A stretch of DNA of 20,000 nucleotides, taken from IMG/VR virus record IMGVR_UViG_3300020049_005154. One strand, 5' to 3'. Made by a program: the position numbers and the translations under genes. This document shows positions 3,530 to 19,629 of the stretch, in pieces. The DNA is from an uncultured virus (IMG/VR IMGVR_UViG_3300020049_005154). Lineage: Duplodnaviria > Heunggongvirae > Uroviricota > Caudoviricetes. The notes below the pieces were generated by a model. It searched no databases. It was not told where the DNA came from and worked only from the letters and a program-made list of their open reading frames with translations. How positions within the stretch are numbered: the first letter of the stretch is position 1; each line of letters begins with the position of its first letter.

Positions 3530-3693
3530 GCACGGCTGAATACCCTACAGGCAAATTTGTTATGCTGATACATCCTAAAGCTAGGACTGTACTGAGGGTA
3601 GCGTTTACACCAAAACCTTTCAGGTACAGAGACTTGCTTAAGAGGCGGGCATTGAACAAGATGGCAGCTAAGTCAAGGAGGCGCAACCGATGA
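3526..3693 (+). CDS. Small basic protein (55 aa, TTG start; alternative ATG at 3517), not in the ORF track
   Basis: Fills the gap exactly with TTGA and ATGA overlaps at the two ends; GAGG at 3512-3515; ends RRALNKMAAKSRRRNR. Confidence 0.7.
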   Translation: MSTAEYPTGKFVMLIHPKARTVLRVAFTPKPFRYRDLLKRRALNKMAAKSRRRNR

Positions 3694-4541
3694 ACCTACT
3701 AACTAAGTTAAGGTACAAGATAGGGCATGATAGATACTACTCCATAGCTAGGAAAGTCTATCAAGCCCTATCATTCACAGCAATAGGTAGAGGATTTACC
3801 TGCAACTGTTGCGGTAAGTCCTATAGAACTACATGGTTCAAGGCTAAACTATGCCCCGGTTGCGGCAGCTACCCTAGGCACAGGCTGCTAGTAGCCTACC
3901 TTGCTAGGTATGAAGGGCATGGCGTTAGGCACATCCTACATGTAGCGCCTGAACCCTTCTTAGCTAAGACAATGAAGAAGCTATTTCCTGATGCAGTGTA
4001 TGTGCCTATAGACTTGAACGCTAGTAAGGGTACAGTACAGGCCGATCTATGTAGGCTAGAATTCCTGGCATCAGAGACCTTTGATCTAGTTATCTGTATG
4101 CAGGTACTAGAGCATATACCTGATGACTACCATGCCATGTATGAGATAGGTAGACTGCTATCCCGTAGCGGTACGGCCATCATTCAAGTACCTATCGGTA
4201 ATGAATTCAAGGAAGACTTTAGTATTACTGACCCGTACCAAAGAGAGCTAGCATTCGGGCAGTGGGATCATGTACGAGTATACGATAGTATTACTCTGGC
4301 CCGTAGACTAGAACATACTGGATGGTTCGATGTAAGCTATCCTACCCATCGCGGCGATGATTGTATTGAAGGGTACATGACTTGTGAGCGTGAGAATCAT
4401 GTGCCTGAATTAGAATACTTACTTAGACTGTACAGAAAGTACAGCACCTTTGAGCATGGCAAGCCAGATAAGGGTAGGTCTAAACACTACTACTGGAATT
4501 GCCCAACTTGCCGTAGGCCAGTAGACTCGCCAATGAATTGA
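3690..4541 (+). CDS. Class I SAM-dependent methyltransferase (type 11-like) with N-terminal zinc ribbon
   Basis: CNCC...CPGCGSYPRHRL, ILHVAPE, FDLVICMQVLEHIPDD, IIQVP, FGQWDHVRVY; AAGGAGG RBS. Confidence 0.88.
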   Translation: MNLLTKLRYKIGHDRYYSIARKVYQALSFTAIGRGFTCNCCGKSYRTTWFKAKLCPGCGSYPRHRLLVAYLARYEGHGVRHILHVAPEPFLAKTMKKLFPDAVYVPIDLNASKGTVQADLCRLEFLASETFDLVICMQVLEHIPDDYHAMYEIGRLLSRSGTAIIQVPIGNEFKEDFSITDPYQRELAFGQWDHVRVYDSITLARRLEHTGWFDVSYPTHRGDDCIEGYMTCERENHVPELEYLLRLYRKYSTFEHGKPDKGRSKHYYWNCPTCRRPVDSPMN

Positions 4542-5536: not shown

Positions 5537-6264
5537 ACATAATCCCTAAAGAAGCAGTACTAGGATTTGCTTTCGATAAGGATATGTATATCCGGGACTC
5601 TAACAAAGAGTGGGATGTCTTTGTTACTGCTTACCCTCACGGCATAGATAGCTTCAAGGTACTGCTAGTTGATAGAGACCCAGACCTGCTTGAATACTTC
5701 CATGCCTATAACCTATGCAAGATGTTCTATAGGCTGCAAGAAGCAGATGATCCGGCTAACAAGTACATACCGACTAAGGTAAAGAACTTGTTTAGCAAGC
5801 ACATGAAACAATGGAGATTGCTTGGCGAGCTTCTTGCTACCAAAGGGCTCCCCGCTGCGGGATACCTTAAGGCACAGATTAAGTACCTACCTAAAGACAA
5901 GTGTAGACCTACTGCATTACTGTCTGCTAATGCCTTAGAGAGATGGGAAAGATACAAGAGAACTGAGCTAGCTAAGGTAGTACTAAGCAAGGATAAGGAA
6001 GAAGCACTACGTAAGCTAGCAACAGAAGAAGATGCTGACCGCAGTTATAGGTACTATGCCGGAGAGAGGTACTTCCTCTGGCTTAAGGGTATGGTCAAGG
6101 GCAACATGACAGATGAAGAGCTTATCTGGAATGAAGTCCTAGCTATCTCCCCCGATTACCTCATTACTCGTACAGAGTTTACAAGCAACTATGTTCCTGG
6201 AATCCATCCCCTATTAGACAGAAGGGTGAATGAGGCTATGATACGTGCAAGAGCCACTAAATAA
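5533..6264 (+). CDS. Hypothetical helical protein, possible helicase loader or initiator
   Basis: 243-aa ORF with ATGA coupling, overlapping the start of the SF4 helicase; function inferred from position only. Confidence 0.7.
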   Translation: MNIIPKEAVLGFAFDKDMYIRDSNKEWDVFVTAYPHGIDSFKVLLVDRDPDLLEYFHAYNLCKMFYRLQEADDPANKYIPTKVKNLFSKHMKQWRLLGELLATKGLPAAGYLKAQIKYLPKDKCRPTALLSANALERWERYKRTELAKVVLSKDKEEALRKLATEEDADRSYRYYAGERYFLWLKGMVKGNMTDEELIWNEVLAISPDYLITRTEFTSNYVPGIHPLLDRRVNEAMIRARATK

Positions 6265-7582
6265 ACCTAGCGTAGTAGAAGGCACCTATGGGGCTATGAT
6301 GCTTACGCTAGATATGCAGCGTAAGATATTAGCCCTGATATGTAGAAGGCCAGACTTCCTCCCTAGATTTGCCTCCATCGTTAAGCCTGCTTACTTCTAC
6401 CCTTCAGAGATTAGGGTTGACATATGCAGACTATGTATTGAATACTTCAACAAGTATAAAACAGGGCCAACACCTGATGCAGTAGCTCAAATGATTACCA
6501 CTATGGTAGTCAATGACTCGGAGAAGTTTAAGATTCATCAAGCTTACTTCGATGAACTTAACCTGCTGGTAAGCTACTCACTGATTGAAGAGCAATTCAT
6601 TACGGATACAGCTATCACCTTTGCTACATCCTATGAACTATACATGGCAGGTACTAAGCTCAGAGATGTACTGATGAAAGGAGACTTGGCAGGGTGCAGG
6701 AAGGTACTGCCCATGTTCCAAGAAGCTTCAAGGATTGGGCAGGACAAGAAAGATATTGGGTCTAGGTTTGCAGATGGTGCATGGATTGACACTCCCCCTA
6801 GGCATGGTATTCTTCCCACCATGCTCCCTACTCTTGATGGCTACCTATGCGGCGGGCTAGCAAGAGGAGAAATGGGAGTCATAGCAGCACCAATGAAAAG
6901 GTTCAAATCTGGTGCTCTGATTAACATAGCTATTGCTGCTATGATGTATGCCGGGTACACAGTAGTACACCTTACAATGGAGCTAACCATACCAGAAGTA
7001 GAGGATAGGTATGCTAGGGCTCTGTTGCGTAAGTTTAGAGGGGTGCATACTGCTGATGATATGCGGCAAGGGCTTAATGATCTACTGGCTAAGCATAAGG
7101 TAGACTTGATTACTAAACACTGGTCCATTGGTACAGCTAAGCCAGAACAAATCAAGGACTACCTGCGCAACCTAGTAAGCATTGGTGCTATCGTTCCATC
7201 AGAGGGTAAGCTGCTAATCATTTGCGATTACCCTGGCTGTATGTACGAGGACAGAGGCAAAGGTCAGAATAGAAGCACCAATATACAGGATAACTATAGA
7301 GCTATGATTCAGATAGCTCAAGAGTTTAACTGCCCTGTATGGTGCGCAGCACAGATGAACAACGATGGCTTCAGGAAAGAAGTTACCGACCAACAGGACC
7401 TAGCTTGGTGTAAGGCCATAGCTGCCGATGCTCATGTGATCCTAACACTATGCCAAACTAAGGATGAGTTTGAAAGAAAAGAACTACGTATCTACACAGC
7501 AGTAGTTAGAGCCGGTAAGATGTATCAGATAGTTAAGATGATGTGCGACCCTGAAACTACGTGGACATGGTTTGAAGCATGA
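6245..7582 (+). CDS. Replicative SF4 DNA helicase (DnaB / T4 gp41-like)
   Basis: LDGYLCGGLARGEMGVIAA, Walker A variant APMKRFKS, H1a HLTMEL, H2 ICDY, H3 VWCAAQMN; helical N-terminal domain; GTG start. Confidence 0.88.
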   Translation: MQEPLNKPSVVEGTYGAMMLTLDMQRKILALICRRPDFLPRFASIVKPAYFYPSEIRVDICRLCIEYFNKYKTGPTPDAVAQMITTMVVNDSEKFKIHQAYFDELNLLVSYSLIEEQFITDTAITFATSYELYMAGTKLRDVLMKGDLAGCRKVLPMFQEASRIGQDKKDIGSRFADGAWIDTPPRHGILPTMLPTLDGYLCGGLARGEMGVIAAPMKRFKSGALINIAIAAMMYAGYTVVHLTMELTIPEVEDRYARALLRKFRGVHTADDMRQGLNDLLAKHKVDLITKHWSIGTAKPEQIKDYLRNLVSIGAIVPSEGKLLIICDYPGCMYEDRGKGQNRSTNIQDNYRAMIQIAQEFNCPVWCAAQMNNDGFRKEVTDQQDLAWCKAIAADAHVILTLCQTKDEFERKELRIYTAVVRAGKMYQIVKMMCDPETTWTWFEA

Positions 7583-7800
7583 AACGATACGATGTATATT
7601 ACGATAGTATGCAAGAAGATGTCGAAGGCAGGTATGTAAAGTATGAAGATGTCGAAGCCAAACTGCGCGCATTCGATATGCTATACGAAGCTGCTAAGAA
7701 TTGTACTGAATATACTGGCGAGAGTAAGTTACTAGAATATGCAGAGCTTAGCTCTATAGTTAATGATGTTCGTAATATGAATCTGCGAGACACAGAATGA
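7579..7800 (+). CDS. Small hypothetical phage protein
   Basis: ATGA overlaps at both ends; GRYVKYED motif is typical of small phage proteins. Confidence 0.7.
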   Translation: MKRYDVYYDSMQEDVEGRYVKYEDVEAKLRAFDMLYEAAKNCTEYTGESKLLEYAELSSIVNDVRNMNLRDTE

Positions 7801-8237
7801 TTGAAATATACACTGATGGCGGGTGCAGGCCCAATCCTGGTAATGGGGGCTGGGCTGCTATCATATACTATGGCTATGTGCCTGTACCTATTGAACTGTC
7901 CGGCTATGTAGAGGGCACTACTAACAATAGGATGGAGATTCAGGCAGTAATAGAAGCTCTGACCTACATTGGGAATGATAGCAACGCGAAGATAGTTATT
8001 ACTACAGATTCTCAGTATGTAAAGAATGGCATTACTTCTTGGATTCATAGTTGGAAGAAGAACCATTGGCGCAACAGTGCAGGAGAGGTAGCCAATAAGG
8101 ACTTATGGCAACGGCTAGATGCGCTAGTACAAGGCAAGGACATTACATGGAAGTGGATTAGAGGGCATTGTGACAACCCTCACAATGATAGATGCGATGA
8201 ACTATGCACTATGGAAATTCTAAAGGATAGAAGCTAA
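7797..8237 (+). CDS. rnhA: Ribonuclease HI
   Basis: IYTDGGCRPNPG.GGW, TTNNRMEI.A, TDSQYV, NKDLW, WIRGH, NDRCDEL: complete acidic catalytic set. Confidence 0.97.
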   Translation: MIEIYTDGGCRPNPGNGGWAAIIYYGYVPVPIELSGYVEGTTNNRMEIQAVIEALTYIGNDSNAKIVITTDSQYVKNGITSWIHSWKKNHWRNSAGEVANKDLWQRLDALVQGKDITWKWIRGHCDNPHNDRCDELCTMEILKDRS

Positions 8238-8479: not shown

Positions 8480-9460
8480 ATGCTACACTTTCCAAGAAAG
8501 GTGCTAGTTGACTGGCTGGAAAGTAGCCTAGGTGTGCTTACCAAGGGTGGGGACAGAGTGCGACTAGCAGCCTGCCCTTGGTGCGGACGATCAAGACCAG
8601 CCTATGTATTCAACCTATCATCGCAACGATTCAGATGCTATAGGTGCGGCACTAAAGCAGGGCTGTACGATCTGGTCAAGAAGGTTAACCCTAACTGCTT
8701 CACCTTAGAAGACATCATCAAAGACATCTATAGTGGCGGGGATGTCTGGGGTATGGAGTTTACAGATGGCCTGGAGCAACAAGCCTTTGAAGACTTCTGG
8801 ACGGGGTTTACTGATAAGTTTCCTGAAGAGACTCTAGCCATGCCGGTAGATTACTCCTGTGACTTCTCTACCCCTATAGGTGAATGCGTATACAGGTATG
8901 CTGAGATGCGTAAGCTACCTACTGAGGCTATACAATCAGGGGAGATAGGCTACGCCAAGGGTACTATGAGTAACAGGCTAGTCTTCCTTATAGTAGAGAA
9001 CAAGAAAGTAGTCTACTGGTTTGGCAGAGCTATCTATGATTGGATGGCACCAAAGGTACTGTACCCTAAGAATACCTCGGTAGGCAAAGGCAAGGATGAA
9101 GTAGTATTCGGATTGGATAAGCTACAGAAAGGAGATAGAGTAGCTTGCTGTGAGGGCGGTATCTCTGCCCTCTCTGCTACTAGGGATGGCTGGAAAGGAA
9201 TAGCTATCCTGGGTAATGAGATGTCCTACCATCAAGCCTACAAGATAAGTAAGCTAACACCTAGTAGATTTGTGTTCTTACGGGAGGATGGAATATCTAT
9301 GCAACATGCCGCTGACCAATGTCTCAGACTAGAATCCTTTGGTACTGAGGCAGAAGTAGGAACGCTAATCAATGGCGATCCTAACGATGATCCTACGCAG
9401 CTAGTTAAGGTATACAGCAACACAAGTAAGGTATCCCCATTCACAGGATGGTTTCAATGA
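8480..9460 (+). CDS. DnaG-type DNA primase (zinc finger plus TOPRIM)
   Basis: CPWC...FRCYRCG zinc finger, NRLVF...VVYWFGRAI, VFGLD, CEG, GIAILG, GDPND. Confidence 0.88.
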   Translation: MLHFPRKVLVDWLESSLGVLTKGGDRVRLAACPWCGRSRPAYVFNLSSQRFRCYRCGTKAGLYDLVKKVNPNCFTLEDIIKDIYSGGDVWGMEFTDGLEQQAFEDFWTGFTDKFPEETLAMPVDYSCDFSTPIGECVYRYAEMRKLPTEAIQSGEIGYAKGTMSNRLVFLIVENKKVVYWFGRAIYDWMAPKVLYPKNTSVGKGKDEVVFGLDKLQKGDRVACCEGGISALSATRDGWKGIAILGNEMSYHQAYKISKLTPSRFVFLREDGISMQHAADQCLRLESFGTEAEVGTLINGDPNDDPTQLVKVYSNTSKVSPFTGWFQ

Positions 9461-9996: not shown

Positions 9997-10188
9997 ATGA
10001 ACATCCCAGATCAAGAATACATTGCCCTACTAGAAGAGCGCACACAACTACTTGAACTTGTAGCTTTGATATGCAGGGATGGTGGACACTACTATCAAGA
10101 GCATGGCGAACAGAAGACGGTAGCACATTGCGTAGAAGAATGGACCAAACTAATTACAAAGGCTGAAGCATATGACAGCATTGAATAA
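9997..10188 (+). CDS. Small hypothetical phage protein (RDGGHY motif)
   Basis: LICRDGGHYYQEHG resembles a motif I recall from small phage proteins; tight packing. Confidence 0.7.
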   Translation: MNIPDQEYIALLEERTQLLELVALICRDGGHYYQEHGEQKTVAHCVEEWTKLITKAEAYDSIE

Positions 10189-10870
10189 GTATGACCTAGC
10201 ATTCGCAGTTACAAGACTGCCAAAGAGGGTTGCCGATCTACTTAAGCGAGAAGGCCCAAAGCTATTCATTGCCGGTGGTTATCTTAGGTCTATTGTAGCT
10301 AATGAAACCATCAACGACATCGACATCTTTACTGACGATAAAGCATCAGCTAAGCGATTCGCTAAAGAGCTATTAGATACTAACTTCCACGATAAGCTAG
10401 TAGAATCTCCTAACGCGATTACGCTAGTAACTAAGCCATATGTGATTCAGTTTATTACTAGGTGGACATTCAATAGGCCGGAAGAGGTACTGCCCAGCTT
10501 CGATTACACAATTGCCAAGGCCGCTTTGTGGTATGAAAATAAGGAATGGAAGTCGTCAGTAGATGATAACTTCTATGTAGACCTAGCAGCTAGGCGCCTA
10601 GTGTATACATCCCCACAGCGTAACGAAGATGCAGGTGGCAGTATCATTCGTATGCTGAAGTTCTACCAGAAGGGCTACAGGATTACCCTTCAATCCCTAG
10701 CAGCGGTAGTTGCTAGACTTAATACAGGTATCAAAGACCCAAGAGCGTTTGAGTTCGAGAGTAGGATGGCTACACTTCTCACAGGGCTACTTGTGGAAGT
10801 TGACCCGCATAGCGCGGACAGTTACATCATTAGGACTGAGGCAGAAGCGAAAGGCGAGCAAGATGCCTAG
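10172..10870 (+). CDS. Pol-beta superfamily nucleotidyltransferase (poly(A) polymerase / CCA head-like)
   Basis: FIAGGYLRS...INDIDIF (hG[GS]...DxD signature), IQFI, FDYTI, R.LKF.QKGY. Confidence 0.85.
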   Translation: MTALNKYDLAFAVTRLPKRVADLLKREGPKLFIAGGYLRSIVANETINDIDIFTDDKASAKRFAKELLDTNFHDKLVESPNAITLVTKPYVIQFITRWTFNRPEEVLPSFDYTIAKAALWYENKEWKSSVDDNFYVDLAARRLVYTSPQRNEDAGGSIIRMLKFYQKGYRITLQSLAAVVARLNTGIKDPRAFEFESRMATLLTGLLVEVDPHSADSYIIRTEAEAKGEQDA

Positions 10871-11144
10871 CTCAAACGATAGACTAAGAAAGAAGTTCTT
10901 TACTTACAACAGTGAAGGTAGAATAGTCGGTGACGGTATAGGCAAAGCAGAGGCTACCATAGAAAGGTATGGTGGAAAGATTCTACCTCGTGGTACGATT
11001 ATCATGCCCAAACTGCTGCCGGGAAGAGACTCTGATATGACAGAATTCTCGGATGCTATTGATTGGCTATGCCTAGAGTGGGACTATGATACCACTACCC
11101 AAGAAGAGATAGATTTTATGGAGGGGCGAAACCCTAATGAATGA
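10863..11144 (+). CDS. Small hypothetical protein (DAIDWL.LEWDY motif)
   Basis: ATG 10863 overlaps the nucleotidyltransferase stop; same frame as track ORF 10710..11144. Confidence 0.7.
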   Translation: MPSSNDRLRKKFFTYNSEGRIVGDGIGKAEATIERYGGKILPRGTIIMPKLLPGRDSDMTEFSDAIDWLCLEWDYDTTTQEEIDFMEGRNPNE

Positions 11145-13827
11145 AATAGTAGCCCCTGATTTCTCTATACTGAAACAGCCTATAGAAGCTTGTGCTAAAT
11201 GCGGTATCTGCCAGCAATGCAGAAGTCCTTACATGCTAGGCAGAGGTAAGTGGAGCAAGCCTAAGCTAATGATTATCTCTGAAGCACCAGGAGAACAGGA
11301 AGACTTTGCCGATATGGCATTGATCGGTCCTGCTGGTGCTCTGCTTGATAAGATGCTTACATGTTTGCAGATAGATAAGACAGACATCTACTATAGCCAA
11401 GCTGTACGGGGACGACCGCCCGGCAATAAGATGTATGATAAGTACATTGGCTACTGTTCCCCCTACATCCGCAAGGAGATAGAGCTAGTACAGCCTACAG
11501 TTATCATTACCCTAGGCAACAGTGCTCTTAAGTCTCTCACTGGTGAAGGTAGTATCACTATCAATAGGGGTAGCATCAAGAAGCTAAACGACATTCCTAT
11601 TGTCCCTACCTATAGCCCTTCTAAGTATCTGAGAAGTAGCGATCAGAATGACTATGATCTTATGCTTCAGGACATTAAGAAGGCATGGGACTTAGCCAAT
11701 GGTGCAGCAGAACCTACTAAGATGCCTGTCAACTATAGGATTGTACGTAACCTAGAACAGTTGATAGAGATGTACAATGAGTGTATGGCTGCACCTATTC
11801 TATCATGCGATATTGAAACCTCTGGCCTTAGCCCTCATAGCAATACAGCTAAGGTAGTGTGCATACAATTCTCCGCCACCCCCTACACTGGATGGCTAGT
11901 ACCTATTCAACATGCCGAATGCTTTGATCTACCTAACTGTGTAGCTTGTGTTAAGGACATCCTTACTAAGCATACAGGGCTAATTGGGCACCATCTTAAG
12001 TTCGATTGGAAGTACATTGAACATGTGCTTAGGTTTAGGCCAGCACTACCTGTAGCTGATACTATGGTAATGCACCACTTGCTCTATGAAGAAGAGAGCA
12101 AGATTGGTATGCTTAAGCTAAAGTCAATGGCCCAGAGGTACACAGACTTAGGCAACTATGCGCCCGATGACTCGGATGAATTCTTCGCATCGTTGCCTAC
12201 TATGCCTCTGGACCAGCTAGTTAGCTATGCTTGCTCTGACGTTGATACAGTGCAGAGGGTCTACCTTCAGCTTAAGCCACTGATCGATACTGAAGGTAAT
12301 CTAGCACAAGCACTTAGGTACGAGATGATTAAGCAGATGCTCTGTGCAGATATGGAACGCAGAGGCGCTTGCATCAATTGGGAATACCATGCCTACTTGA
12401 TGGAAGAATTCCCCAAGCGTATATCTAAAGAGCTAGACATTGTACGCTCCTTCTCAGAAGTACTAGACGTAGAGGATCAACTAGTAGAGGAGTATGTAGC
12501 TAAGCATTTAGCAAATAAGCACAAGACTATCAAGACAGAGATAACCCAAGAGAGGCTTGATGCTTGGGCTGTTAAGGCTAAGGAGAAGGCTATCGCTGAA
12601 ATCAGGTTCAATCCTAAATCCCCAGACCAGTTACGTAAGCTAATGGTGGATAGGCTAGGACTACCTGAAATTGTATTCACTGATTCAGGAGAGCCTTCTT
12701 GTGGCAAGGATGCAAGGGGCGCTTGGCTCATGGCACTGAAGGGTAAAGGCATCAAGGCCGACATCATTAATGCTGTAGCTGAATACCTGATAGCCCACTC
12801 TACCTATAGCTTCGTTAAGCAGTATGGCGAGCATAAAGCAGACGACGGTAAGCTACACTGTAACTACAATACCTGTACCGCAGTAACCTTTAGACTGAGT
12901 TCCAGTGGAGTAAATCTGCAAAATTTGCCTAGAGATGATGAGTCTCAGGAAAAGAAGGAACAAGGTCTTGTAGGTAAAGGAGACATCAAGAGGCTCTTCA
13001 TTGTACCACATCAGGGGTGGAAGCTGTATGAGCCAGATGGTAAGCAGATTGAGCTAGTCATTGCAGGGTTGCTATCCCAAGACCCTGAGATGCTACATGC
13101 TTTCAGTAATGGTATTGACCTGCACTATATGCTGGCATCTAAGGTGTATGGCAAGCCAGCCTGTGAAGTATCTGACAAGGAGAGAACTGAAGCTAAGAAG
13201 GCTAACTTTGGTGCTCTCTATGGTATCAGTCCGGGACAGCTATCTCTGAAGAACAAGATTCCTCTTGACACCGCTAAGGCTTTCATTGAAGAGTTCTGGC
13301 GGACGTTCAAGGGATTCCAACGCTGGGTGCTGGAAACACAGACGTTCGCCCGCCTGAATGGCTACGTTGACTGCCCGTTGGGGCACAGGCGCCACCTTCC
13401 CGCCGCACAGTCGGCAGACCAGGAGGCTAGATCAGAAGCACTACGCCAAGCAGTCAATACCCCTATCCAGAATACTGCTAGTAACATCATCATCTATGCT
13501 GCTTCAGTAGCTAACAATATCTTCAGGCAGCTAAAGTTACAGGCATACATCTTTGGGCAGGTACATGACTCTGTTTGGGTAGCTTCACCAGAGGAAGAAG
13601 AAGCACTAGCACTAGGTATAGTAATGTACTGTATTGAAAACATGCCGTTTGATTTCTTACATGGCAGAGATGAAAGATACCCTGTACCTCTAAGGATTCA
13701 AGCGGGAATCAAATCAGGAATCAACCTATGTGACACAGCTAAGACTACTGTTAAACTCACACCAGAAATAGCGGCTATCTGCCGACCACACCTAGACCTA
13801 TTCCTCCAAGGAAAAATCCTTACATGA
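11137..13827 (+). CDS. Family A DNA polymerase with N-terminal UDG family-4-like domain and 3'-5' exonuclease (SPO1-type architecture)
   Basis: UDG-like: CAKC, SEAPG, GPAG.LL, RPPGN, EIELVQP..IITLG. Exo: DIET, HLKFD, YACSD. Pol: RLSS..NLQN, D..QIEL, RTEAKKANFGALYG, VHDS. GGAGG RBS. Confidence 0.95.
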   Translation: MNEIVAPDFSILKQPIEACAKCGICQQCRSPYMLGRGKWSKPKLMIISEAPGEQEDFADMALIGPAGALLDKMLTCLQIDKTDIYYSQAVRGRPPGNKMYDKYIGYCSPYIRKEIELVQPTVIITLGNSALKSLTGEGSITINRGSIKKLNDIPIVPTYSPSKYLRSSDQNDYDLMLQDIKKAWDLANGAAEPTKMPVNYRIVRNLEQLIEMYNECMAAPILSCDIETSGLSPHSNTAKVVCIQFSATPYTGWLVPIQHAECFDLPNCVACVKDILTKHTGLIGHHLKFDWKYIEHVLRFRPALPVADTMVMHHLLYEEESKIGMLKLKSMAQRYTDLGNYAPDDSDEFFASLPTMPLDQLVSYACSDVDTVQRVYLQLKPLIDTEGNLAQALRYEMIKQMLCADMERRGACINWEYHAYLMEEFPKRISKELDIVRSFSEVLDVEDQLVEEYVAKHLANKHKTIKTEITQERLDAWAVKAKEKAIAEIRFNPKSPDQLRKLMVDRLGLPEIVFTDSGEPSCGKDARGAWLMALKGKGIKADIINAVAEYLIAHSTYSFVKQYGEHKADDGKLHCNYNTCTAVTFRLSSSGVNLQNLPRDDESQEKKEQGLVGKGDIKRLFIVPHQGWKLYEPDGKQIELVIAGLLSQDPEMLHAFSNGIDLHYMLASKVYGKPACEVSDKERTEAKKANFGALYGISPGQLSLKNKIPLDTAKAFIEEFWRTFKGFQRWVLETQTFARLNGYVDCPLGHRRHLPAAQSADQEARSEALRQAVNTPIQNTASNIIIYAASVANNIFRQLKLQAYIFGQVHDSVWVASPEEEEALALGIVMYCIENMPFDFLHGRDERYPVPLRIQAGIKSGINLCDTAKTTVKLTPEIAAICRPHLDLFLQGKILT

Positions 13828-15038
13828 CTTTCGTTGACACCCGAGAAATCTCAGCAGCGCGCGCAGCAGAAATGAAGGCCCAGGATAAGGAAGCCAGCAA
13901 GGCTTACTATCAAGGTGGAGATTACCTTCAGAAGTTTGAAATGCCAAAGGATATGGCCCCAGGTACATATCGCGTACTGCGGTTTATCGTTCCTGACTAT
14001 GTTACTCCGCAGAACTTGACTGCCTTTAACCATATGGGTATTACCTACTGCTTCGCTTCAGCAGCTACAGTAGGCTGGGGCAAGATGGCTAACTACCGTG
14101 CGTATGTTGACCCTTCCCCCTTTGGTCAGCCTAACCCTTATGGTGAATACTCCCACTGGATTACTACTCAGGGCACTAAGACAGATCGTGAACGGCTTGC
14201 AGAGATTAGGTTTAATCGCTCCCACCATGCTTTCGTTCTGGATATTACAGACCAGAATAGCTTTAACCTTGGTCTACAGATGTGGAGCAATATCCCCTTC
14301 TCTGTAGTTGAAGCCCTTACTCAGCTTGCCGAACAGCGTAACCCTATGGACCAGAGCAAGCACGCCTACCCCTGCTTCTGGCACCCAGAACAGGGCTTCC
14401 CTATCCTTGTGCGTCGCTTTGCTAGCGATGGCGGCAAGACTAAGTATGAGATTAAGCCATACATGGCTGGCAATGAGGCGGGGCAGATCGTGCTCCAGTG
14501 TGGCCCTATCCCTAATGCTGTAGAAGTTATGAAGCAGGCCAACGAGAATGACATTGGCGGCTTCATCTATCTTGAAACCGAAGAGACTATTAGGGAAATG
14601 CTCTCCGGTAAGGAAGTTGATGCTAAGGTTAAGCGTACCCGTCGTGAACTTAGGGATAAGATGCTTGGCCGTGATCCTGTGTGCAGGTTCAAGGACTTCA
14701 CTAAGAAGGGTGGCGACGGTATCCCTGATGCTGCTAAGGCTGGGTCTGTTGAGTTCAATCGCCCTCCCGTTACTACGCCTAATACCGCCCCAGCACCCTT
14801 TGGGCTACCTGCTACTGCCGCCCCTCCCGCCGTCCCGTTCGTTAGTACTGTCCCGGCACGGGAGGAGATGCCACACATGGGGGCTCCGGCCCCCGCTGCT
14901 GCCTTCGTTGCGCCTCCGATCGCCGTTCCTCCTCCTGTCGCTGCTGCCCCTGCCATTCAGCCTCCGGGGACGGTTGCCGCTGCTGCTAGTACTCCCCCTC
15001 CCGCTGGTATGCCGCCCTGGCTCCAGAAGCAAGGATAA
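13824..15038 (+). CDS. Probable single-stranded DNA-binding protein (T4 gp32-like) with Pro/Ala-rich tail
   Basis: Sits right after the polymerase; VLRFI and HPEQGFPILVRR...GKTKYEIKP resemble gp32-like OB-fold phage SSBs. Confidence 0.65.
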   Translation: MTFVDTREISAARAAEMKAQDKEASKAYYQGGDYLQKFEMPKDMAPGTYRVLRFIVPDYVTPQNLTAFNHMGITYCFASAATVGWGKMANYRAYVDPSPFGQPNPYGEYSHWITTQGTKTDRERLAEIRFNRSHHAFVLDITDQNSFNLGLQMWSNIPFSVVEALTQLAEQRNPMDQSKHAYPCFWHPEQGFPILVRRFASDGGKTKYEIKPYMAGNEAGQIVLQCGPIPNAVEVMKQANENDIGGFIYLETEETIREMLSGKEVDAKVKRTRRELRDKMLGRDPVCRFKDFTKKGGDGIPDAAKAGSVEFNRPPVTTPNTAPAPFGLPATAAPPAVPFVSTVPAREEMPHMGAPAPAAAFVAPPIAVPPPVAAAPAIQPPGTVAAAASTPPPAGMPPWLQKQG

Positions 15039-15389: not shown

Positions 15390-15656
15390 ATGGCTAAAGC
15401 TTTAGTGAAAGAACTTAACTGGCAAGAGTTTAAAGACCTCGACGATGGCACAATACAGTACTTACTGGCTATCAATTTAGGTAACTTTACTATGGCTGTA
15501 TACATAAGCGAAGCTGATGCAGCAGGACGCTACATTGTGCATGGGCCTAATTTTAAAACATCCTACTGGCCTTCAGTGGACCACGCTAAAGCCTACGTAA
15601 AACGCACCCTACGCATGGTATCTAGAGAAGTTACAAGGACTAAACTAAATGGCTAA
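15390..15656 (+). CDS. Small hypothetical protein
   Basis: 88-aa ORF filling the gap; overlaps the recA start. Confidence 0.7.
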   Translation: MAKALVKELNWQEFKDLDDGTIQYLLAINLGNFTMAVYISEADAAGRYIVHGPNFKTSYWPSVDHAKAYVKRTLRMVSREVTRTKLNG

Positions 15657-16623
15657 ACGTGAATACTACATGACTGCGGACCAAGTTATACCGCAGCACA
15701 TTGATCGTATCCCTAGCGGTAGCCGTATCCTAGATAGCATCCTAGGTGGCGGCTGGGCTAGAGGTAGGCACCACATCATAGCAGGACAACAGGCGGCAGG
15801 CAAGACTACCCTAGCTTTGATGGCTGCTATCTCATGTCAGAACATGGGGCTTAGGGTAGCCTACATAGACGCAGAACATGCACTAGATAGGACTTATGCT
15901 AAGTTTCTAGGCGTTGACCTTACTAGAATGCTGTACCCTGAGCTAACTACTGGCGATGATGCCAAGGAAGCTTTGGTTACATACCTAGATGACAGGAACC
16001 CATTTAGCCTTATCGTCATTGACTCTATTGCTGCATTGTGCCCTGAAGGTATGTACGATGGTACCAATGAATCCCTAGGCGGCAGAGCTAGACTTGTTAA
16101 CGATATGTTCATAGTCTGCAATGCTAGGCTGGAGCTAGCTAACTGTGCAGTTATCTGGATCAATCAGCTTAGGGATACCATTGGCGGATACGGCAGCGGT
16201 AAGATCATGCCGGGCGGTAATGCCCCTCAATTCTACGCCACCACCATTATGCAGATCAACTCCCCTCCGCTTAAAGATAATTCTGATAAGGTTATCGGTA
16301 GGAACATTACTCCCAAGATTACCAAGAACAAGCTTGGCCCTACTTGCTATGATCCTGAGCCAATCCCCTACGTATTCGGTAAGGGCGTTGACACTTCTAG
16401 GGAGCTACTTACCCTAGCTTACAGGGCTGGGCTTATTACCATTGGCGGTACTCGGTATTCGTTCAAAGATCAAGTCATAGCTAACGGTAAAGAAAACACC
16501 ATTGCATTACTTGATCGCGACGAAACTTTAAGGGTTGCTATCATTACTGCCTTGGATGGTAAGCCACCTGCTGCTAAGTATGTTCCTCCTCCTCCACCTT
16601 CCTTTGAATTCAAGATAGGATAG
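15649..16623 (+). CDS. recA: RecA/UvsX-family recombinase
   Basis: Walker A GQQAAGKTT, YIDAEHALD, IVIDSIAAL, INQLR, GGNAPQFYA, KNKLG. Confidence 0.95.
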   Translation: MAKREYYMTADQVIPQHIDRIPSGSRILDSILGGGWARGRHHIIAGQQAAGKTTLALMAAISCQNMGLRVAYIDAEHALDRTYAKFLGVDLTRMLYPELTTGDDAKEALVTYLDDRNPFSLIVIDSIAALCPEGMYDGTNESLGGRARLVNDMFIVCNARLELANCAVIWINQLRDTIGGYGSGKIMPGGNAPQFYATTIMQINSPPLKDNSDKVIGRNITPKITKNKLGPTCYDPEPIPYVFGKGVDTSRELLTLAYRAGLITIGGTRYSFKDQVIANGKENTIALLDRDETLRVAIITALDGKPPAAKYVPPPPPSFEFKIG

Positions 16624-16626
16624 TCT

Positions 16627-19600
16627 ATGTATCTGTTCTCCGTAGTAGCTGACTTGCATTTGGATGACTGGCCTAGGTGGGCGCACAAGACAGATGAAGG
16701 TAGTAACACCAGGCTAGAGGCACAGATCAAAGTAGTAAAGGATATGCTCTCCCTTAGTCAGCATACCCCCAAGCGTTTAGTTATTGCCGGAGATACGGCT
16801 AACCCTAGAAAGGAATCACTACCCCTAGCTGTATCTAATGGTATTACTAACCTGATGAATTGGTGCTCTGCTAACATGGAGAGCACCTATGTCATTGAAG
16901 GCAACCATGATTACCCTTGGCGCACACCGGATAAGGGCAAGCTATCCTCTGTTAGTATCTGCAAGAGAGATAATGTGCATGTGGTAGAGGGATGCAAGAT
17001 CGTTAAGATTCCTCTCATTATGCCGGGCAGCTTCCTTGATCTGTGCTTGCTATCCTACCAGCCTACTGAAGAAGCTCTAGCTGCTGCTATCAACTACTTC
17101 TTCACCAACACTGGCCCCGATAGGGTGCTCATTGCCCATCAACCCTTGATGGAAGGTATGCTTGATAATGGTGGGCTAGCTATTAAAGGCAATAGCCCTG
17201 ATACCTTTCAGCCCGAGAAGTGGAAGCTAATCCTCTTAGGCGATTACCATAGGCCACAGAAGATTAGAAGCAATATGTTCTACGTCGGCGCTCCGTATGA
17301 GCTAAACAGAGGCGATGCCCGACATGACGGCCCTAGAGGCTACGTAGAAGTACACTTCGACCCTATCACCAATACCGTACAGCATAAGTACATAGCTTCT
17401 CAGCACACCAATATGAAGTTTGTTACAATCGACGTAACGGACGATACCGATGTTACTAAGAACATTGCGCTACATAAAGAAGACTTTGTTACGTTTAGTG
17501 TGCTACCTGCTGCTGCTAGTAGGTTCGCGCAGATTGAAGCTATCGCCAGAGCCAACTATACCTTCCCGCCGGAAGTCCTCAATCAAGGCAGGCTTAAAGC
17601 TTCCGACCTAACAGACGATGCTAGATATGATGGCATTACAGCCAATACCGATCCTATTGATGTTGTCAAGGCGTACATTGCTAGGAGGGGATGGGAGCCT
17701 CTTAATCTAGAGTACCTATTCCAGACCTGCAAGTATTGCCTTGATAGGATTCCAGTTACTAACGCTGGCATCTATAGAGGCTTCATTGTCTTTAAGCAGC
17801 TAGACATGATTAACTTCATGTCTCATAGAAATACCTCCGTTAAGCTAGACAACATAGGCTTAGTGCTACTTGACGGTAAGAACGGTGCCGGTAAGTCTTC
17901 TATCTTTGAAGGCATCTACGTTACCTTATTCGGTAAGACTATGCGTGAGCTTCCTGTTAAGAAGGTGCGCAATAGATTTGTTGATGAAGACTGCGTACTT
18001 AAGCTTACCCTATCCACTGAGCATTCAGAGATTAGGATTGAGCGTACCTTCCCTTTCAAGGGATCGGAACAGGTACGCATATACCGTAATGGTGTGGAAG
18101 AGCCAGTATTCAAAGACTCTGCACAAAAGATATACGAGATTACTGGTATCTCAGAGACCTACTTTAAGGCTGCCGGTATCTTGTCGGCTAATATCCTATC
18201 TAGGTTTATGGCTGCCAGTACCAGCGAGCGTCAACGTATCATTCAGGAAATGATTGATACCGAGCCATATGATCTAGCATTTAAGGTAGCTAGCGAACAG
18301 CTTAACAGTATTGACGCTAACATCAGAGACCTTAGCTCCCTATCTGATAGGGCTCTAGGAGCTAAGGAGCAAGCAGAGAGAGCTATTGCCCAGCTTACTG
18401 CTGAGAGAGACATCTTTGAGCTAAGGACCAAGCAAGCTAAGGCTGAGCTAGGGGGTAGGATAGCTAGCGTGCAGGAAAAGGTTAATGCACTACAGGACCA
18501 GCTTAACCTTAAAAATGCTGCTATAGCTGCAATGGTTATACCTACCATGAATGTACCTGCTGAGGCTCTACAGTACGAGGCTCAGGCAGCTATGTTACAA
18601 TCAGAGATTAACACTAGGCACCATCAACTAGGCGGGTACTCTGCCGACCTAGCTAGGGCTCAGGCGCTTAAGGAGAAGATGCGACAGTATGAGTCAGGCA
18701 AGAGCAAGTGCCCTACCTGCTTGCAGAGCATCGGGCTAGAACACATCAATAGCTGCATTGCTGCCGCTGACGTTGACGGCAGGGATGCTGCCGAAATGAA
18801 GACGAAGCTTAACGATGAAATCTTTGCCTTCAATCTCCAGATCAAAGAACTGACGGATAAGGCTCGGCAACTGCGGGCACAGAACGATCTTAACTACCAG
18901 CGTGCGAACCAGGATTACCAGAGCGTGTACAACGAGGCCAGGACCGTCTCCGTTGCCCTTCAGGTAGCTCAGGCTGAGATTGCCGCTCTGAGGAACGAAC
19001 AAGACAAGGTGCAGTCTCAGAGTACCAACTATGACGTGTCGATTGAGCGAGAGCGGAAGCGCGTAGAGGAAAACACCGCGATCTACCAGCAACGGAAGAC
19101 CGAGTTAGAGAGCATATCGGGTAGCCGCCCCCTCATGGCTGCCGCCCATAACATATTCTCCTCTACCGGAGTCAAGAACTTTCTTTTGGATACGATCACC
19201 CCAGCGATTTGCCTTGAAGCGATGCGCTGCTTAGAGCTAGTAGCGCCGGGGCAGTACTCCATTACTTCTGCCGTCAAGAGCACAGCCGTACAGGACAAGC
19301 TGACCTTCGCCGTGGACAACAAGCGGGGCTCAGATGATCCACGCGGCAACTCCGATGGCGAGAAGAACATCGTTGACCTATGCACCTTATGGGCGATCAA
19401 CCGCGTGGCCGTGCGGTGGAACATCCTTGACTTCGATGAACCCTTCTCGGCCTTCGACGACACGGTTACACCTAGGGCATTCAGGCTGCTTGAATCGGCA
19501 GCTAACGAAGGGAGGAGCATCATATGTACTACCCATCGTGACGATCTAAAGAACTTATTTCCGCAACGCTGGCTGGTTGAGAAGACTGAAGTTAACGGTA

Positions 19601-19629
19601 TCGAGACAAGCATTCTTCACGTAGGCTAA
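16627..19629 (+). CDS. Fused SbcD (Mre11/gp47) nuclease and SbcC (Rad50/gp46) ABC-ATPase
   Basis: Phosphoesterase motifs ADLH, AGD, GNHD, AHQ, GDYH; then Walker A GKNGAGKSS, coiled coil with CPTC hook, signature NSDGE, Walker B DFDEP, H-loop TTH, all in one 1000-aa frame. Confidence 0.93.
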   Translation: MYLFSVVADLHLDDWPRWAHKTDEGSNTRLEAQIKVVKDMLSLSQHTPKRLVIAGDTANPRKESLPLAVSNGITNLMNWCSANMESTYVIEGNHDYPWRTPDKGKLSSVSICKRDNVHVVEGCKIVKIPLIMPGSFLDLCLLSYQPTEEALAAAINYFFTNTGPDRVLIAHQPLMEGMLDNGGLAIKGNSPDTFQPEKWKLILLGDYHRPQKIRSNMFYVGAPYELNRGDARHDGPRGYVEVHFDPITNTVQHKYIASQHTNMKFVTIDVTDDTDVTKNIALHKEDFVTFSVLPAAASRFAQIEAIARANYTFPPEVLNQGRLKASDLTDDARYDGITANTDPIDVVKAYIARRGWEPLNLEYLFQTCKYCLDRIPVTNAGIYRGFIVFKQLDMINFMSHRNTSVKLDNIGLVLLDGKNGAGKSSIFEGIYVTLFGKTMRELPVKKVRNRFVDEDCVLKLTLSTEHSEIRIERTFPFKGSEQVRIYRNGVEEPVFKDSAQKIYEITGISETYFKAAGILSANILSRFMAASTSERQRIIQEMIDTEPYDLAFKVASEQLNSIDANIRDLSSLSDRALGAKEQAERAIAQLTAERDIFELRTKQAKAELGGRIASVQEKVNALQDQLNLKNAAIAAMVIPTMNVPAEALQYEAQAAMLQSEINTRHHQLGGYSADLARAQALKEKMRQYESGKSKCPTCLQSIGLEHINSCIAAADVDGRDAAEMKTKLNDEIFAFNLQIKELTDKARQLRAQNDLNYQRANQDYQSVYNEARTVSVALQVAQAEIAALRNEQDKVQSQSTNYDVSIERERKRVEENTAIYQQRKTELESISGSRPLMAAAHNIFSSTGVKNFLLDTITPAICLEAMRCLELVAPGQYSITSAVKSTAVQDKLTFAVDNKRGSDDPRGNSDGEKNIVDLCTLWAINRVAVRWNILDFDEPFSAFDDTVTPRAFRLLESAANEGRSIICTTHRDDLKNLFPQRWLVEKTEVNGIETSILHVG

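Follow-up and report, generated by a model that had tools for sequence, protein, structure and literature searches.

A likely disarmed family-4 UDG domain at the N-terminus of a phage family A DNA polymerase

A 20,000-nucleotide stretch of DNA from an uncultured Caudoviricetes virus (IMG/VR IMGVR_UViG_3300020049_005154; the whole stretch is referred to below as the window) encodes a DNA polymerase, P0001, whose first 195 residues form a UDG-like domain. According to our analysis, this domain probably carries out no useful uracil removal, and the replicative polymerase would retain it as a structural part that contacts DNA; we give this reading a probability of about 60%. Mutants of Thermus UDGa make loss of uracil excision likely, and it is from structures published for related enzymes that we infer the DNA-guiding role.

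The ORF list and the translation give P0001 as a single open frame of 896 aa (11137..13827, + strand); its protein cluster is recorded on a contig of 76,193 bases. A family-4 UDG-like domain (residues 1-195, 11137..11721, + strand), recognized by phmmer against the PDB, AF2 modelling and Foldseek, is followed by a 3'-5' exonuclease domain (Pfam DNA_pol_A_exo1, residues 200-383, 11734..12285, + strand) and a family A polymerase domain (Pfam DNA_pol_A, residues 471-836, E 1.1e-69, 12547..13644, + strand). The Pfam UDG profile PF03167 matches residues 41-177 with an E-value of 3.7e-20 and 72.9 bits, above its cut-off of 24.3. P0001 thus joins a UDG homologue, an exonuclease and a PolA in one chain, as UDG-PolA fusions do, and the order of the Pfam domains within one frame bears out the sequence-only reading of a family-4 UDG domain fused to PolA. 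The catalytic residues of the exonuclease (D225, E227, D290, Y364, D368) and of the polymerase (D634, E639, R683, K687, F691, Y695, H810, D811) are all there, so P0001 should be a working replicase. A pseudogene or frameshift was ruled out by the single open frame and the intact exonuclease and polymerase sites. The AF2 model of the full-length protein has a pLDDT of 95.9 and a pTM of 0.93. With VIA-align, residues 199-869 superpose on 6vdd with a Z of 36.8 and an rmsd of 2.2 Å over 565 aligned residues, and over residues 196-869 there is a one-to-one alignment with large fragments of the Klenow type (560-600 residues). Among the best 50 matches listed in full-length fold searches, which cover residues 193-872 only, we found Klenow-type fragments only and not the fused enzyme 9qhs.

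When residues 1-208 were compared with the PDB by phmmer, 32 rows had E <= 1, and 28 of them were family-4 UDG or UdgX chains. The closest are free-standing family-4 enzymes sharing 27-31% identity with P0001, namely those of S. tokodaii (4zbx, E 2.3e-21), T. maritima (1l9g, 5.4e-20) and Thermus (Tth UDGa, 1ui0, 2.8e-19); residues 12-187 align to residues 7-189 of 4zbx with short gaps only. The AF2 model of the domain (pLDDT 96.6) gave Foldseek TMq values of 0.80 with 1l9g (179 columns), 0.82 with 1ui0 (197) and 0.77 with 4zbx (195). As modelled, the domain is a complete family-4 UDG fold. Of 12 fused polymerases scored against the NCBIfam family-4 UDG profile TIGR00758 (cut-off 125.3), P0001 comes out lowest, at 88.9 bits. 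Nine of these lie outside the trio that P0001 forms with its close relatives P0002 and P0003; seven of the nine are also under the cut-off (105.2-123.8), which is passed only by P0019 (169.2) and P0022 (175.6) and proved uninformative here. Glu, Asn and His are all kept in eight of the nine, and P0019 has a His at position 88.

Several family hallmarks are changed in P0001. Motif A reads SEAPG (11278..11292, + strand), with Glu49 kept and Ser48 in place of a first Gly that is conserved in 81% of 145 other fused domains. Motif B reads SPSKYLR (11614..11634, + strand), in which Ser160 takes the place of the catalytic His (Tth H155) that 4zbx, 1l9g and 1ui0 show at this column; Pro161, Leu165 and Arg166 are kept. 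Within QAVRGRPP (11398..11421, + strand), Gly92 replaces the third Fe-S Cys, turning KCRPP into RGRPP. The sequence-only reading had pointed out that motif A departs from GE[A/G]PG, that the motif B His is gone and that the KCRPP Cys is lost, and all three observations hold in the translation. They hold also in the alignment it had proposed to the Thermus and Sulfolobus enzymes, in which SEAPG, RGRPP and SPS lie under GEAPG/GEGPG, KCRPP and HPA/HPS. The PDB phmmer alignments add two further pocket changes: Gln88 stands in place of the uracil-binding Asn (itNvv; Tth N80), and the Phe of PFVG, which stacks on uracil (Tth F54), is Leu62 (11320..11322, + strand).

Xia 2017 (PMC5387724) examined seven residues of Tth UDGa: E41, G42, E47, F54, N80 and H155, all in the pocket, and N89. 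At these sites P0001 keeps E49, A50, E55 and N97, and has L62, Q88 and S160 at the positions of F54, N80 and H155. In the data reported there, H155S lowers k2 from 2.3e-1 to 7.2e-5 s-1, about 3000- to 3200-fold, and leaves Km unchanged; N80A and F54A lower k2/Km 44-fold and 17-fold, with a Km that could not be determined and is given as relatively large (PMC5387724). His160Ser of P0001 is the natural counterpart of the engineered H155S. Because this substitution cuts k2 without changing Km in the Thermus enzyme, a DNA-binding, template-guiding module with inefficient uracil excision is the likeliest reading. The earlier description of the domain as catalytically disarmed is thus likely, given His160Ser and the replacement of Asn and Phe as well, although it is drawn by comparison with mutants of another enzyme.

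We consider it unlikely that the domain is still a glycosylase, either slow on uracil or with a pocket remodelled through Leu62, Gln88 and Ser160 for another base, for instance a 5-substituted pyrimidine. Glu49, Glu55 and Asn97 are indeed kept, P0002 retains the His, and the MUG-type UDG domain of the YerA41 polymerase is described as excising dU with no His in motif B (printed MYSL), so His loss alone is no proof of inactivity. The Phe position, moreover, is replaced in 25 of 149 related domains, by Leu in 15 of them, several being otherwise canonical. Gln88 occurs in 3 of the 149, which are the trio only, and being fixed there it looks selected; it could be a selected new contact rather than a sign of decay. 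This reading has to contend with the loss of about three orders of magnitude in k2 caused by H155S alone in Tth UDGa (PMC5387724), and with the lack of fixation of the His, Phe, motif A and motif 3 Asn within the trio clade. Since these pocket residues differ across the trio, a single tuned pocket is argued against. We also know of no resemblance of the P0001 motifs to those of UDG families 2, 3, 5 or 6.

P0002 and P0003 are the only close relatives of P0001. Compared with P0001, they are respectively 65.6% and 63.9% identical across the UDG part, 73.7% and 70.7% across the exonuclease and 60.4% and 60.8% across the polymerase; between themselves they share 83.8%, 83.9% and 84.5% in the same three parts. 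By this measure the UDG domain appears as constrained as the polymerase. Positions 48/49/62/88/92/160 nevertheless read SELQGS in P0001, SEFQCH in P0002 and TEFQCS in P0003, and the trio is therefore variable at sites that the family conserves. Asn to Gln88 is common to all three, whereas the His (Ser/His/Ser in P0001/P0002/P0003), the Phe (Leu/Phe/Phe) and the Fe-S Cys are missing in some only; motif 3 Asn is N/D/D and motif A is SEAPG/SEAPK/TESPK. G64, P65, the L126-G127-N128 loop, P161, S162 and L165 are invariant. In a tree of the exonuclease and polymerase columns, the trio forms one clade (support 100), and the canonical GEFNCH is found in its sister P0010. The surrounding clade (support 97) comprises 14 rows, and 7 of these show GEFNCH as well. 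Such a mosaic of losses is in keeping with relaxed constraint on catalysis. The trio probably descends from an ancestor whose UDG domain was canonical. Along the stem of the small clade, Gln would have replaced the Asn that binds uracil, and the Gly of motif A would have gone; thereafter the His, the Phe, the motif 3 Asn and one Fe-S Cys would have been free to drift by lineage, while the remainder of the domain would have stayed under selection. A search for close relatives with DNA gave one distant locus only in viral contigs (L001), four loci at 25-26% identity in metagenome contigs and none in genome contigs.

Loss of catalytic residues is not restricted to the trio. Glu, Asn or His is lost in 40 of the 149 related domains, requiring at least 17 changes on the tree, and such loss thus appears common and recurrent; the motif B His is missing in 20, with Ser in its place in 9. 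All four cluster Cys are retained in 35 of these 40, so dead UDG domains seem to be maintained in the family. This speaks against the P0001 domain being a functionless, decaying remnant, a reading that we regard as extremely unlikely. In its favour, 10 of 38 family-conserved columns are changed in P0001, compared to a median of 5 in the 145 other fused domains. It sits badly, however, with a conservation across the trio that matches that of the polymerase domain, with a UDG domain that has neither indels nor stops and with its confident fold prediction.

The iron-sulfur ligands are altered as well. The N-terminus carries CAKCGICQQC (Cys19/22/25/28, 11191..11220, + strand), the four-Cys stretch of the sequence-only reading, as direct translation confirms. 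Cys19 and Cys22 align with canonical Fe-S ligands and Cys25 and Cys28 are extra; the fourth canonical ligand, Cys107 (11455..11457, + strand), aligned with a Cys of the solved enzymes and invariant in our alignments A2 and A3, is kept. Three of the four canonical Cys are thus present (Cys19, Cys22, Cys107), with Gly92 at the third ligand. In the 149-domain alignment, Cys28 is found in 50 domains, Cys25 in 17 and both in 3, and the four-Cys N-terminus therefore looks only partly special. Cys92 is replaced in 4 of the 149, P0001 being the sole Gly, and within the trio the loss of Cys92 and the presence of Cys25 are seen in P0001 only; what appears unusual in P0001 is only Cys92Gly together with the extra Cys25. 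Compensation of Cys92 by Cys28 as a general rule was rejected, since nearly all of the 50 domains with Cys28 keep Cys92. A rearranged metal site, as proposed earlier, is plausible from these residues. Literature searches, thin in their coverage of subscription journals, turned up nothing about which residues bind Fe-S in fused UDG domains. The Cx2Cx2C spacing of Cys19/22/25 resembles that of ferredoxins. A quite unlikely extension would be a ligand-swapped Fe-S module (Cys19, 22, 25, 107) reading the template base through a non-cutting Gln88 pocket ahead of the polymerase; if true, nature would have turned a DNA glycosylase fold into a metal-dependent sensor of bases on a replicase.

More generally, the domain might act as a read-ahead sensor that binds a template uracil or other odd base without cutting it, slowing or stalling the polymerase. 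We regard this as very unlikely, even though Tth H155S loses its chemistry at wild-type Km (PMC5387724). The Asn and Phe that hold uracil are replaced too, and since the N80A and F54A mutants have a relatively large Km in that study, the specificity of uracil binding is probably lost as well. The ORFs of the window show no sign of uracil handling. Nor was any nucleotide-modification gene recognized among the ORFs of this 20-kb stretch, and the suggested link of the UDG domain to modified-pyrimidine DNA finds no support there. In published accounts, the T-modified phages YerA41 and phiLo have active UDG domains, and Czernecki et al. relate the inactive N4-like domains to unmodified DNA (PMC10201439).

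The best deposited-phage matches of P0001 are SPO1-like UDG-PolA enzymes (SPO1 gp31, SP-10, YungSlug); they are 26-30% identical to it across 85-94% of its length and have the three domains in identical order. The alignment to SPO1 gp31 proposed by the sequence-only reading shows QENPF / YMTG / YTSIV-KYPTP / IHPN and no CxxC in the SPO1 domain; that of SP-10 reads TDTAS / FTALV-KQPTP / IGPD, without the Glu, Asn, His or Cys. Both are degenerate in another way than P0001, which keeps three cluster Cys, and the SPO1 and SP-10 sequences suggest that the fold carries no cluster in those phages. The N4-like UDG-PolA enzymes (cluster 17, Czernecki et al. 2023, PMC10201439) are described as carrying, like P0001, an N-terminal family-4 UDG homologue on an exonuclease and PolA, in proteins of about 800-900 aa, with non-conserved catalytic residues and a proposed role in processivity. 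According to that description, a short helix and the His-bearing beta-hairpin are missing from their domains, whereas P0001 has a complete fold with point substitutions. No N4-like phage is among the best 40 phage records listed for P0001. The free-standing enzymes share the fold but are unfused, while P0001 has it on a polymerase, with Ser48, Leu62, Gln88, Gly92 and Ser160 at the hallmarks. A UDG fold is also used for processivity in the replicase of vaccinia, by D4 with A20, an analogy drawn in PMC3201878. D4, however, is not fused to its polymerase, which is of family B, but acts as a separate subunit; the P0001 domain lies in the same chain as a family A polymerase. The mpox orthologue E4 is stated to be enzymatically active (PMC13697223).

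The proposed mechanism draws on the SP15-like UDG-PolA enzymes (YerA41, phiLo; PDB 9qhs; Missoury et al. 2026, PMC13697223), in which a UDG domain precedes exonuclease and PolA as in P0001. These are reported to have 1100-1300 aa, two inserts and a C-terminal domain and to excise dU, in contrast to P0001 with 896 aa and no His, and the P0001 UDG domain matches 9qhs only weakly (phmmer E 0.29; Foldseek E 3.6e-7, TMq 0.62). The solved SP15-like structures place the UDG domain in contact with the 5' strand of the template, before this strand reaches the polymerase site, and a strand-displacement role is suggested where the catalytic residues are lost (PMC13697223). Because of this contact, we propose a template-guiding mechanism for P0001. 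By analogy with the phiLo and YerA41 enzymes, its UDG domain would sit beside the exonuclease and the fingers, where it would keep hold of the single-stranded 5' template, or steer it, before it enters the active site, and so aid processivity or strand displacement. The earlier suggestion of a processivity module or a non-excising reader is already in print, a non-catalytic role of such UDG domains having been proposed in 2011, 2023 and 2026 (PMC3201878, PMC10201439, PMC13697223).

UDG-PolA fusions with inactive UDG domains have been published, as has the idea that these domains serve processivity or strand displacement. P0001 is a further example of this described phage design and leaves the current picture of UDG-PolA enzymes unchanged. 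What it contributes is a clean case from nature for a question already raised in print, namely which task remains for a UDG fold on a phage replicase after cutting stops. Because its members carry different catalytic subsets at 64-84% identity, the trio may serve as a natural mutant set for separating DNA guiding from excision.

P0001, the UDG-exonuclease-PolA fusion, is encoded as one 896-aa ORF at 11137-13827 (+), in which Pfam assigns residues 41-177 to UDG (E = 3.7e-20), residues 200-383 to the 3'-5' exonuclease and residues 471-836 to DNA_pol_A (E = 1.1e-69). Direct translation confirmed the motifs quoted in the sequence-only reading: CAKCGICQQC (19-28), SEAPG (48-52), RGRPP (91-95) and SPSKYLR (160-166). 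When residues 1-208 were compared with the PDB by phmmer (E ≤ 1), 28 of the 32 rows were family-4 UDG or UdgX chains, with matches to the enzymes of S. tokodaii (4zbx, 2.3e-21), T. maritima (1l9g, 5.4e-20) and T. thermophilus (1ui0, 2.8e-19). As proposed, SEAPG lies opposite GEAPG or GEGPG, RGRPP opposite KCRPP and SPS opposite HPA or HPS. Cys19, Cys22 and Cys107 align with three of the four cluster cysteines of the solved UDGs. The alignments also revealed two substitutions beyond those described before: the Phe in PFVG has become Leu62, and Gln88 takes the place of the Asn in (I/V)TN(V/I)V.

Mapped in this way onto the Thermus enzyme (Tth UDGa), P0001 has L62, Q88 and S160 at the positions of F54, N80 and H155 and keeps E49, A50, E55 and N97. 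Xia et al. (2017; PMC5387724) assigned E41, G42, E47, F54, N80 and H155 to the uracil pocket of that enzyme, and N89 was among the residues they studied too. In that enzyme, H155S lowers k2 from 2.3e-1 to 7.2e-5 s-1 while Km stays nearly the same (9.7e-7 and 7.6e-7 M); k2/Km is 2.4e5 for the wild type, 9.4e1 for H155S, 5.5e3 for N80A and 1.4e4 for F54A (PMC5387724). Because Ser160 occupies the H155 position, the natural change in P0001 equals an engineered one that, in these data, abolishes the chemistry but not DNA binding, and this equivalence is the strongest ground at present for regarding the domain as catalytically disarmed. The substitutions behind that description are real, but loss of activity may not follow from them, since the MUG-type UDG domain of the YerA41 polymerase lacks the motif B His and yet excises dU (Missoury et al., 2026; PMC13697223). 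The YerA41 case speaks for residual or retuned glycosylase activity in P0001 and the H155S kinetics against it; we regard such activity as unlikely.

The UDG fold is intact in the predicted structure. The AF2 model of residues 1-200 (alignment A3, 123 rows) has a mean pLDDT of 96.6, and the UDG domain superposes on 1l9g (TMq 0.80, 179 columns), 1ui0 (0.82, 197 columns) and 4zbx (0.77, 195 columns). The full-length model (pLDDT 95.9, pTM 0.93) places residues 196-869 on Klenow-type polymerases with Z scores of 33-37 (6vdd: Z 36.8, rmsd 2.2 A, 565 residues aligned). The exonuclease residues D225, E227, D290, Y364 and D368 and the polymerase residues D634, E639, R683, K687, F691, Y695, H810 and D811 are all kept. 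Judged by these residues, the gene is that of a working replicase, not a wreck. Polymerase motif A (13036-13059) reads DGKQIELV in P0001 and its two close relatives, P0002 and P0003, versus a family consensus of DYSQxELR; it retains the catalytic Asp and Glu. Of the 123 rows, 4 have Gly635, 12 have Lys636 and 3 have Val641, a position at which 114 have Arg.

None of the 4787 matching records of deposited phages reaches 60% identity to P0001, the best being the SPO1-type Bacillus phages YungSlug, SP-10 and SPO1 (gp31) at 26-30%. A search of 5.8 billion proteins with residues 1-200 returned four other proteins only: P0002 (65%), P0003 (64%), P0004 (31%) and P0005. The last of these is of the UdgX type, has a TIGR03915 domain joined to it and is not a polymerase. 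Within the trio the three domains are equally conserved, with UDG, exonuclease and polymerase identities of 65.6%, 73.7% and 60.4% for P0001-P0002, 63.9%, 70.7% and 60.8% for P0001-P0003, and 83.8%, 83.9% and 84.5% for P0002-P0003. This equality argues that the UDG domain is not decaying, so that a functionless remnant, which the lost hallmarks might bring to mind, is very improbable. Positions 48, 49, 62, 88, 92 and 160 read SELQGS in P0001, SEFQCH in P0002 and TEFQCS in P0003; the last motif A residue is G, K and K, and the motif 3 Asn is N, D and D, respectively. All three proteins share Gln in place of Asn and lack the first Gly of motif A, while His is lost in P0001 and P0003, and Phe and the third cluster Cys in P0001 only. 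G64-P65, L126-G127-N128, P161-S162 and L165 are invariant in the trio; we take the loops that carry them to be putative DNA-backbone contacts, as in UDG-DNA complexes. Hallmarks that vary by lineage in a conserved domain are what would be expected had excision been abandoned on the stem of the clade.

How common such domains are was assessed on the best 150 of the 3125 proteins found at E ≤ 1e-30 in an exhaustive search of representatives. A UDG domain was detectable in 149 of the 154 proteins collected, and these 149 were aligned. The six positions read GEFNCH in 96 domains; 109 retain Glu49, Asn88 and His160 together, and 40 have lost one or more of them. Of the 149 domains, 20 have no His (9 have Ser instead), 23 no Asn and 25 no Phe (15 have Leu). 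At 38 columns conserved in at least 70% of the 145 other fused domains, P0001 deviates 10 times, compared with a median of 5, and 27 of the 145 deviate at 10 or more, which suggests that its substitution load is not very unusual. A FastTree phylogeny was built from the exonuclease and polymerase columns of alignment A2 (123 rows: the query and 122 of the 128 proteins with a domain E < 1e-12 starting before residue 70; six long proteins, P0057, P0068, P0101, P0126, P0128 and P0154, were excluded by hand). The canonical/degenerate label changes 27 times on this tree, at least 17 of these being forced by well-supported branches, and it is no more tightly clustered than at random (in 74-93 of 500 shuffles the count is as low). 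The trio forms a clade (support 100) with the canonical P0010 as sister, nested in a 14-row clade (support 97) of which half is canonical; supports are local, several long branches are flagged and deep placements are uncertain.

A full set of the four canonical cysteines is found in 132 of the 149 domains; among the 40 that miss at least one of Glu, Asn and His it is found in 35, so non-catalytic domains maintain the cluster site as well. Of the 17 other rows, eleven lack the N-terminal segment and are probably short gene calls. True ligand substitutions occur in six domains: Cys92 is replaced by Gly in P0001, by His in P0005 and P0119, where it could still bind iron, and by Tyr in P0024, while P0128 has Cys107 changed to Ala and P0138 Cys22 to Ser. 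Only P0001 in the trio lacks Cys92, and only it has Cys25 (Asn in P0002, Ser in P0003). As the two changes coincide in P0001, a swap of Cys92 for Cys25 as ligand is a reasonable hypothesis, founded on one co-occurrence. At position 25 the family mostly has His, Tyr, Cys, Trp or Phe, and the position aligns with Met in 1ui0, Trp in 4zbx and His in 1l9g, which suggests that its side chain packs near the cluster; Cys28 is found in 50 of 149 domains, usually alongside Cys92. Our literature search on iron-sulfur ligands of fused UDG domains found nothing, and the altered cysteine set is the only feature of P0001 with some novelty.

The reference phages SPO1 (L006:556-1155), SP-10 (L007:595-1194) and YungSlug (L008:577-1176) have UDG-like domains that are degenerate in our own alignment, like that of P0001. 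SPO1 gp31 (QENPF / YMTG / YTSIV-KYPTP / IHPN) retains only the motif A Glu and motif B His, with none of the four cluster cysteines and no N-terminal CxxC. YungSlug (ADNPT / WMVG / FTGIV-KCPTP / VHPQ) retains the cysteines and His without Glu and Asn, and SP-10 (TDTAS / YMTD / FTALV-KQPTP / IGPD) lacks Glu, Asn, His and cluster Cys. At least the SP-10 sequence is hard to square with the printed claim that SPO1-like polymerases retain the catalytic residues.

The sequence-only reading had called the altered domain compatible with modified-pyrimidine DNA. The published correlation (Czernecki et al., 2023; PMC10201439) runs if anything in the opposite direction. SPO1 and SP-10 replace T by modified uracils (PMC10201439) and have degenerate domains in our alignment; the cases together yield no rule. 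The scanned ORFs of the window, seven of which are family-less, gave no match to a thymidylate-synthase-like, deaminase, dUTPase or hypermodification family, and nothing in the window bears on modified DNA. A non-cutting base sensor, which the same reading had allowed, seems to us quite improbable.

The window carries a phage-type replication module, and every gene listed here is on the + strand: a ResIII/SF2 helicase (829-2343), a class I methyltransferase (3690-4541), a DnaB-like helicase (6245-7582), an RNase H (7797-8237), a primase (8480-9460) and a RecA homologue (15649-16623). Just upstream of the polymerase gene, with a single short ORF (10710-11144) between, lies a small nucleotidyltransferase-like protein of 232 aa (10172-10870), whose PolyA_pol head domain scores 20.7 bits, under the Pfam cut-off of 23, and which matches phrog_1614 'nucleotidyltransferase' at 4.8e-9. 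Between the polymerase and recA genes, a 404-aa protein (13824-15038) gave no match in Pfam, PHROG and NCBIfam scans; at a guess, from position alone, it is a candidate single-strand-binding or annealing protein. Its C-terminal tail is rich in Pro/Ala, raising the GC of 14001-15000 to 0.545. In the 1000-aa protein at 16627-19629, an SbcD/Mre11-like phosphoesterase (Metallophos, residues 6-105; phrog_100) and an SbcC/Rad50-like ATPase (AAA_23/SMC_N, residues 390-974; phrog_77) appear to be joined in a single chain. Positions 1-1000 have a GC of 0.589, versus 0.42-0.49 across most of the window, and contain short overlapping ORFs only.

The proposal of a non-excising module was reasonable, but its core, an inactive UDG domain on PolA with a processivity role, is already published. 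Kazlauskas and Venclovas (2011; PMC3201878) noted the UDG domain on the SPO1 polymerase and cited a hypothesis under which it acts as an intrinsic processivity factor, on the model of vaccinia D4-A20. The N4-like group of UDG-PolAs, whose catalytic residues are not conserved, was defined by Czernecki et al. (2023; PMC10201439), who reported that only some other UDG-PolAs retain them all, predicted that the UDG domain lies between exonuclease and polymerase, and proposed inactive domains as processivity modules. In the solved YerA41 and phiLo polymerases, dU is excised ahead of the fork and the UDG domain contacts the 5' template strand (Missoury et al., 2026; PMC13697223). For P0001, the most likely function of the UDG domain, with a probability of roughly 60%, is that of a non-excising, template-contacting module of the replicase. 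Excision would have been abandoned at the base of the trio clade, and the domain retained for another job.
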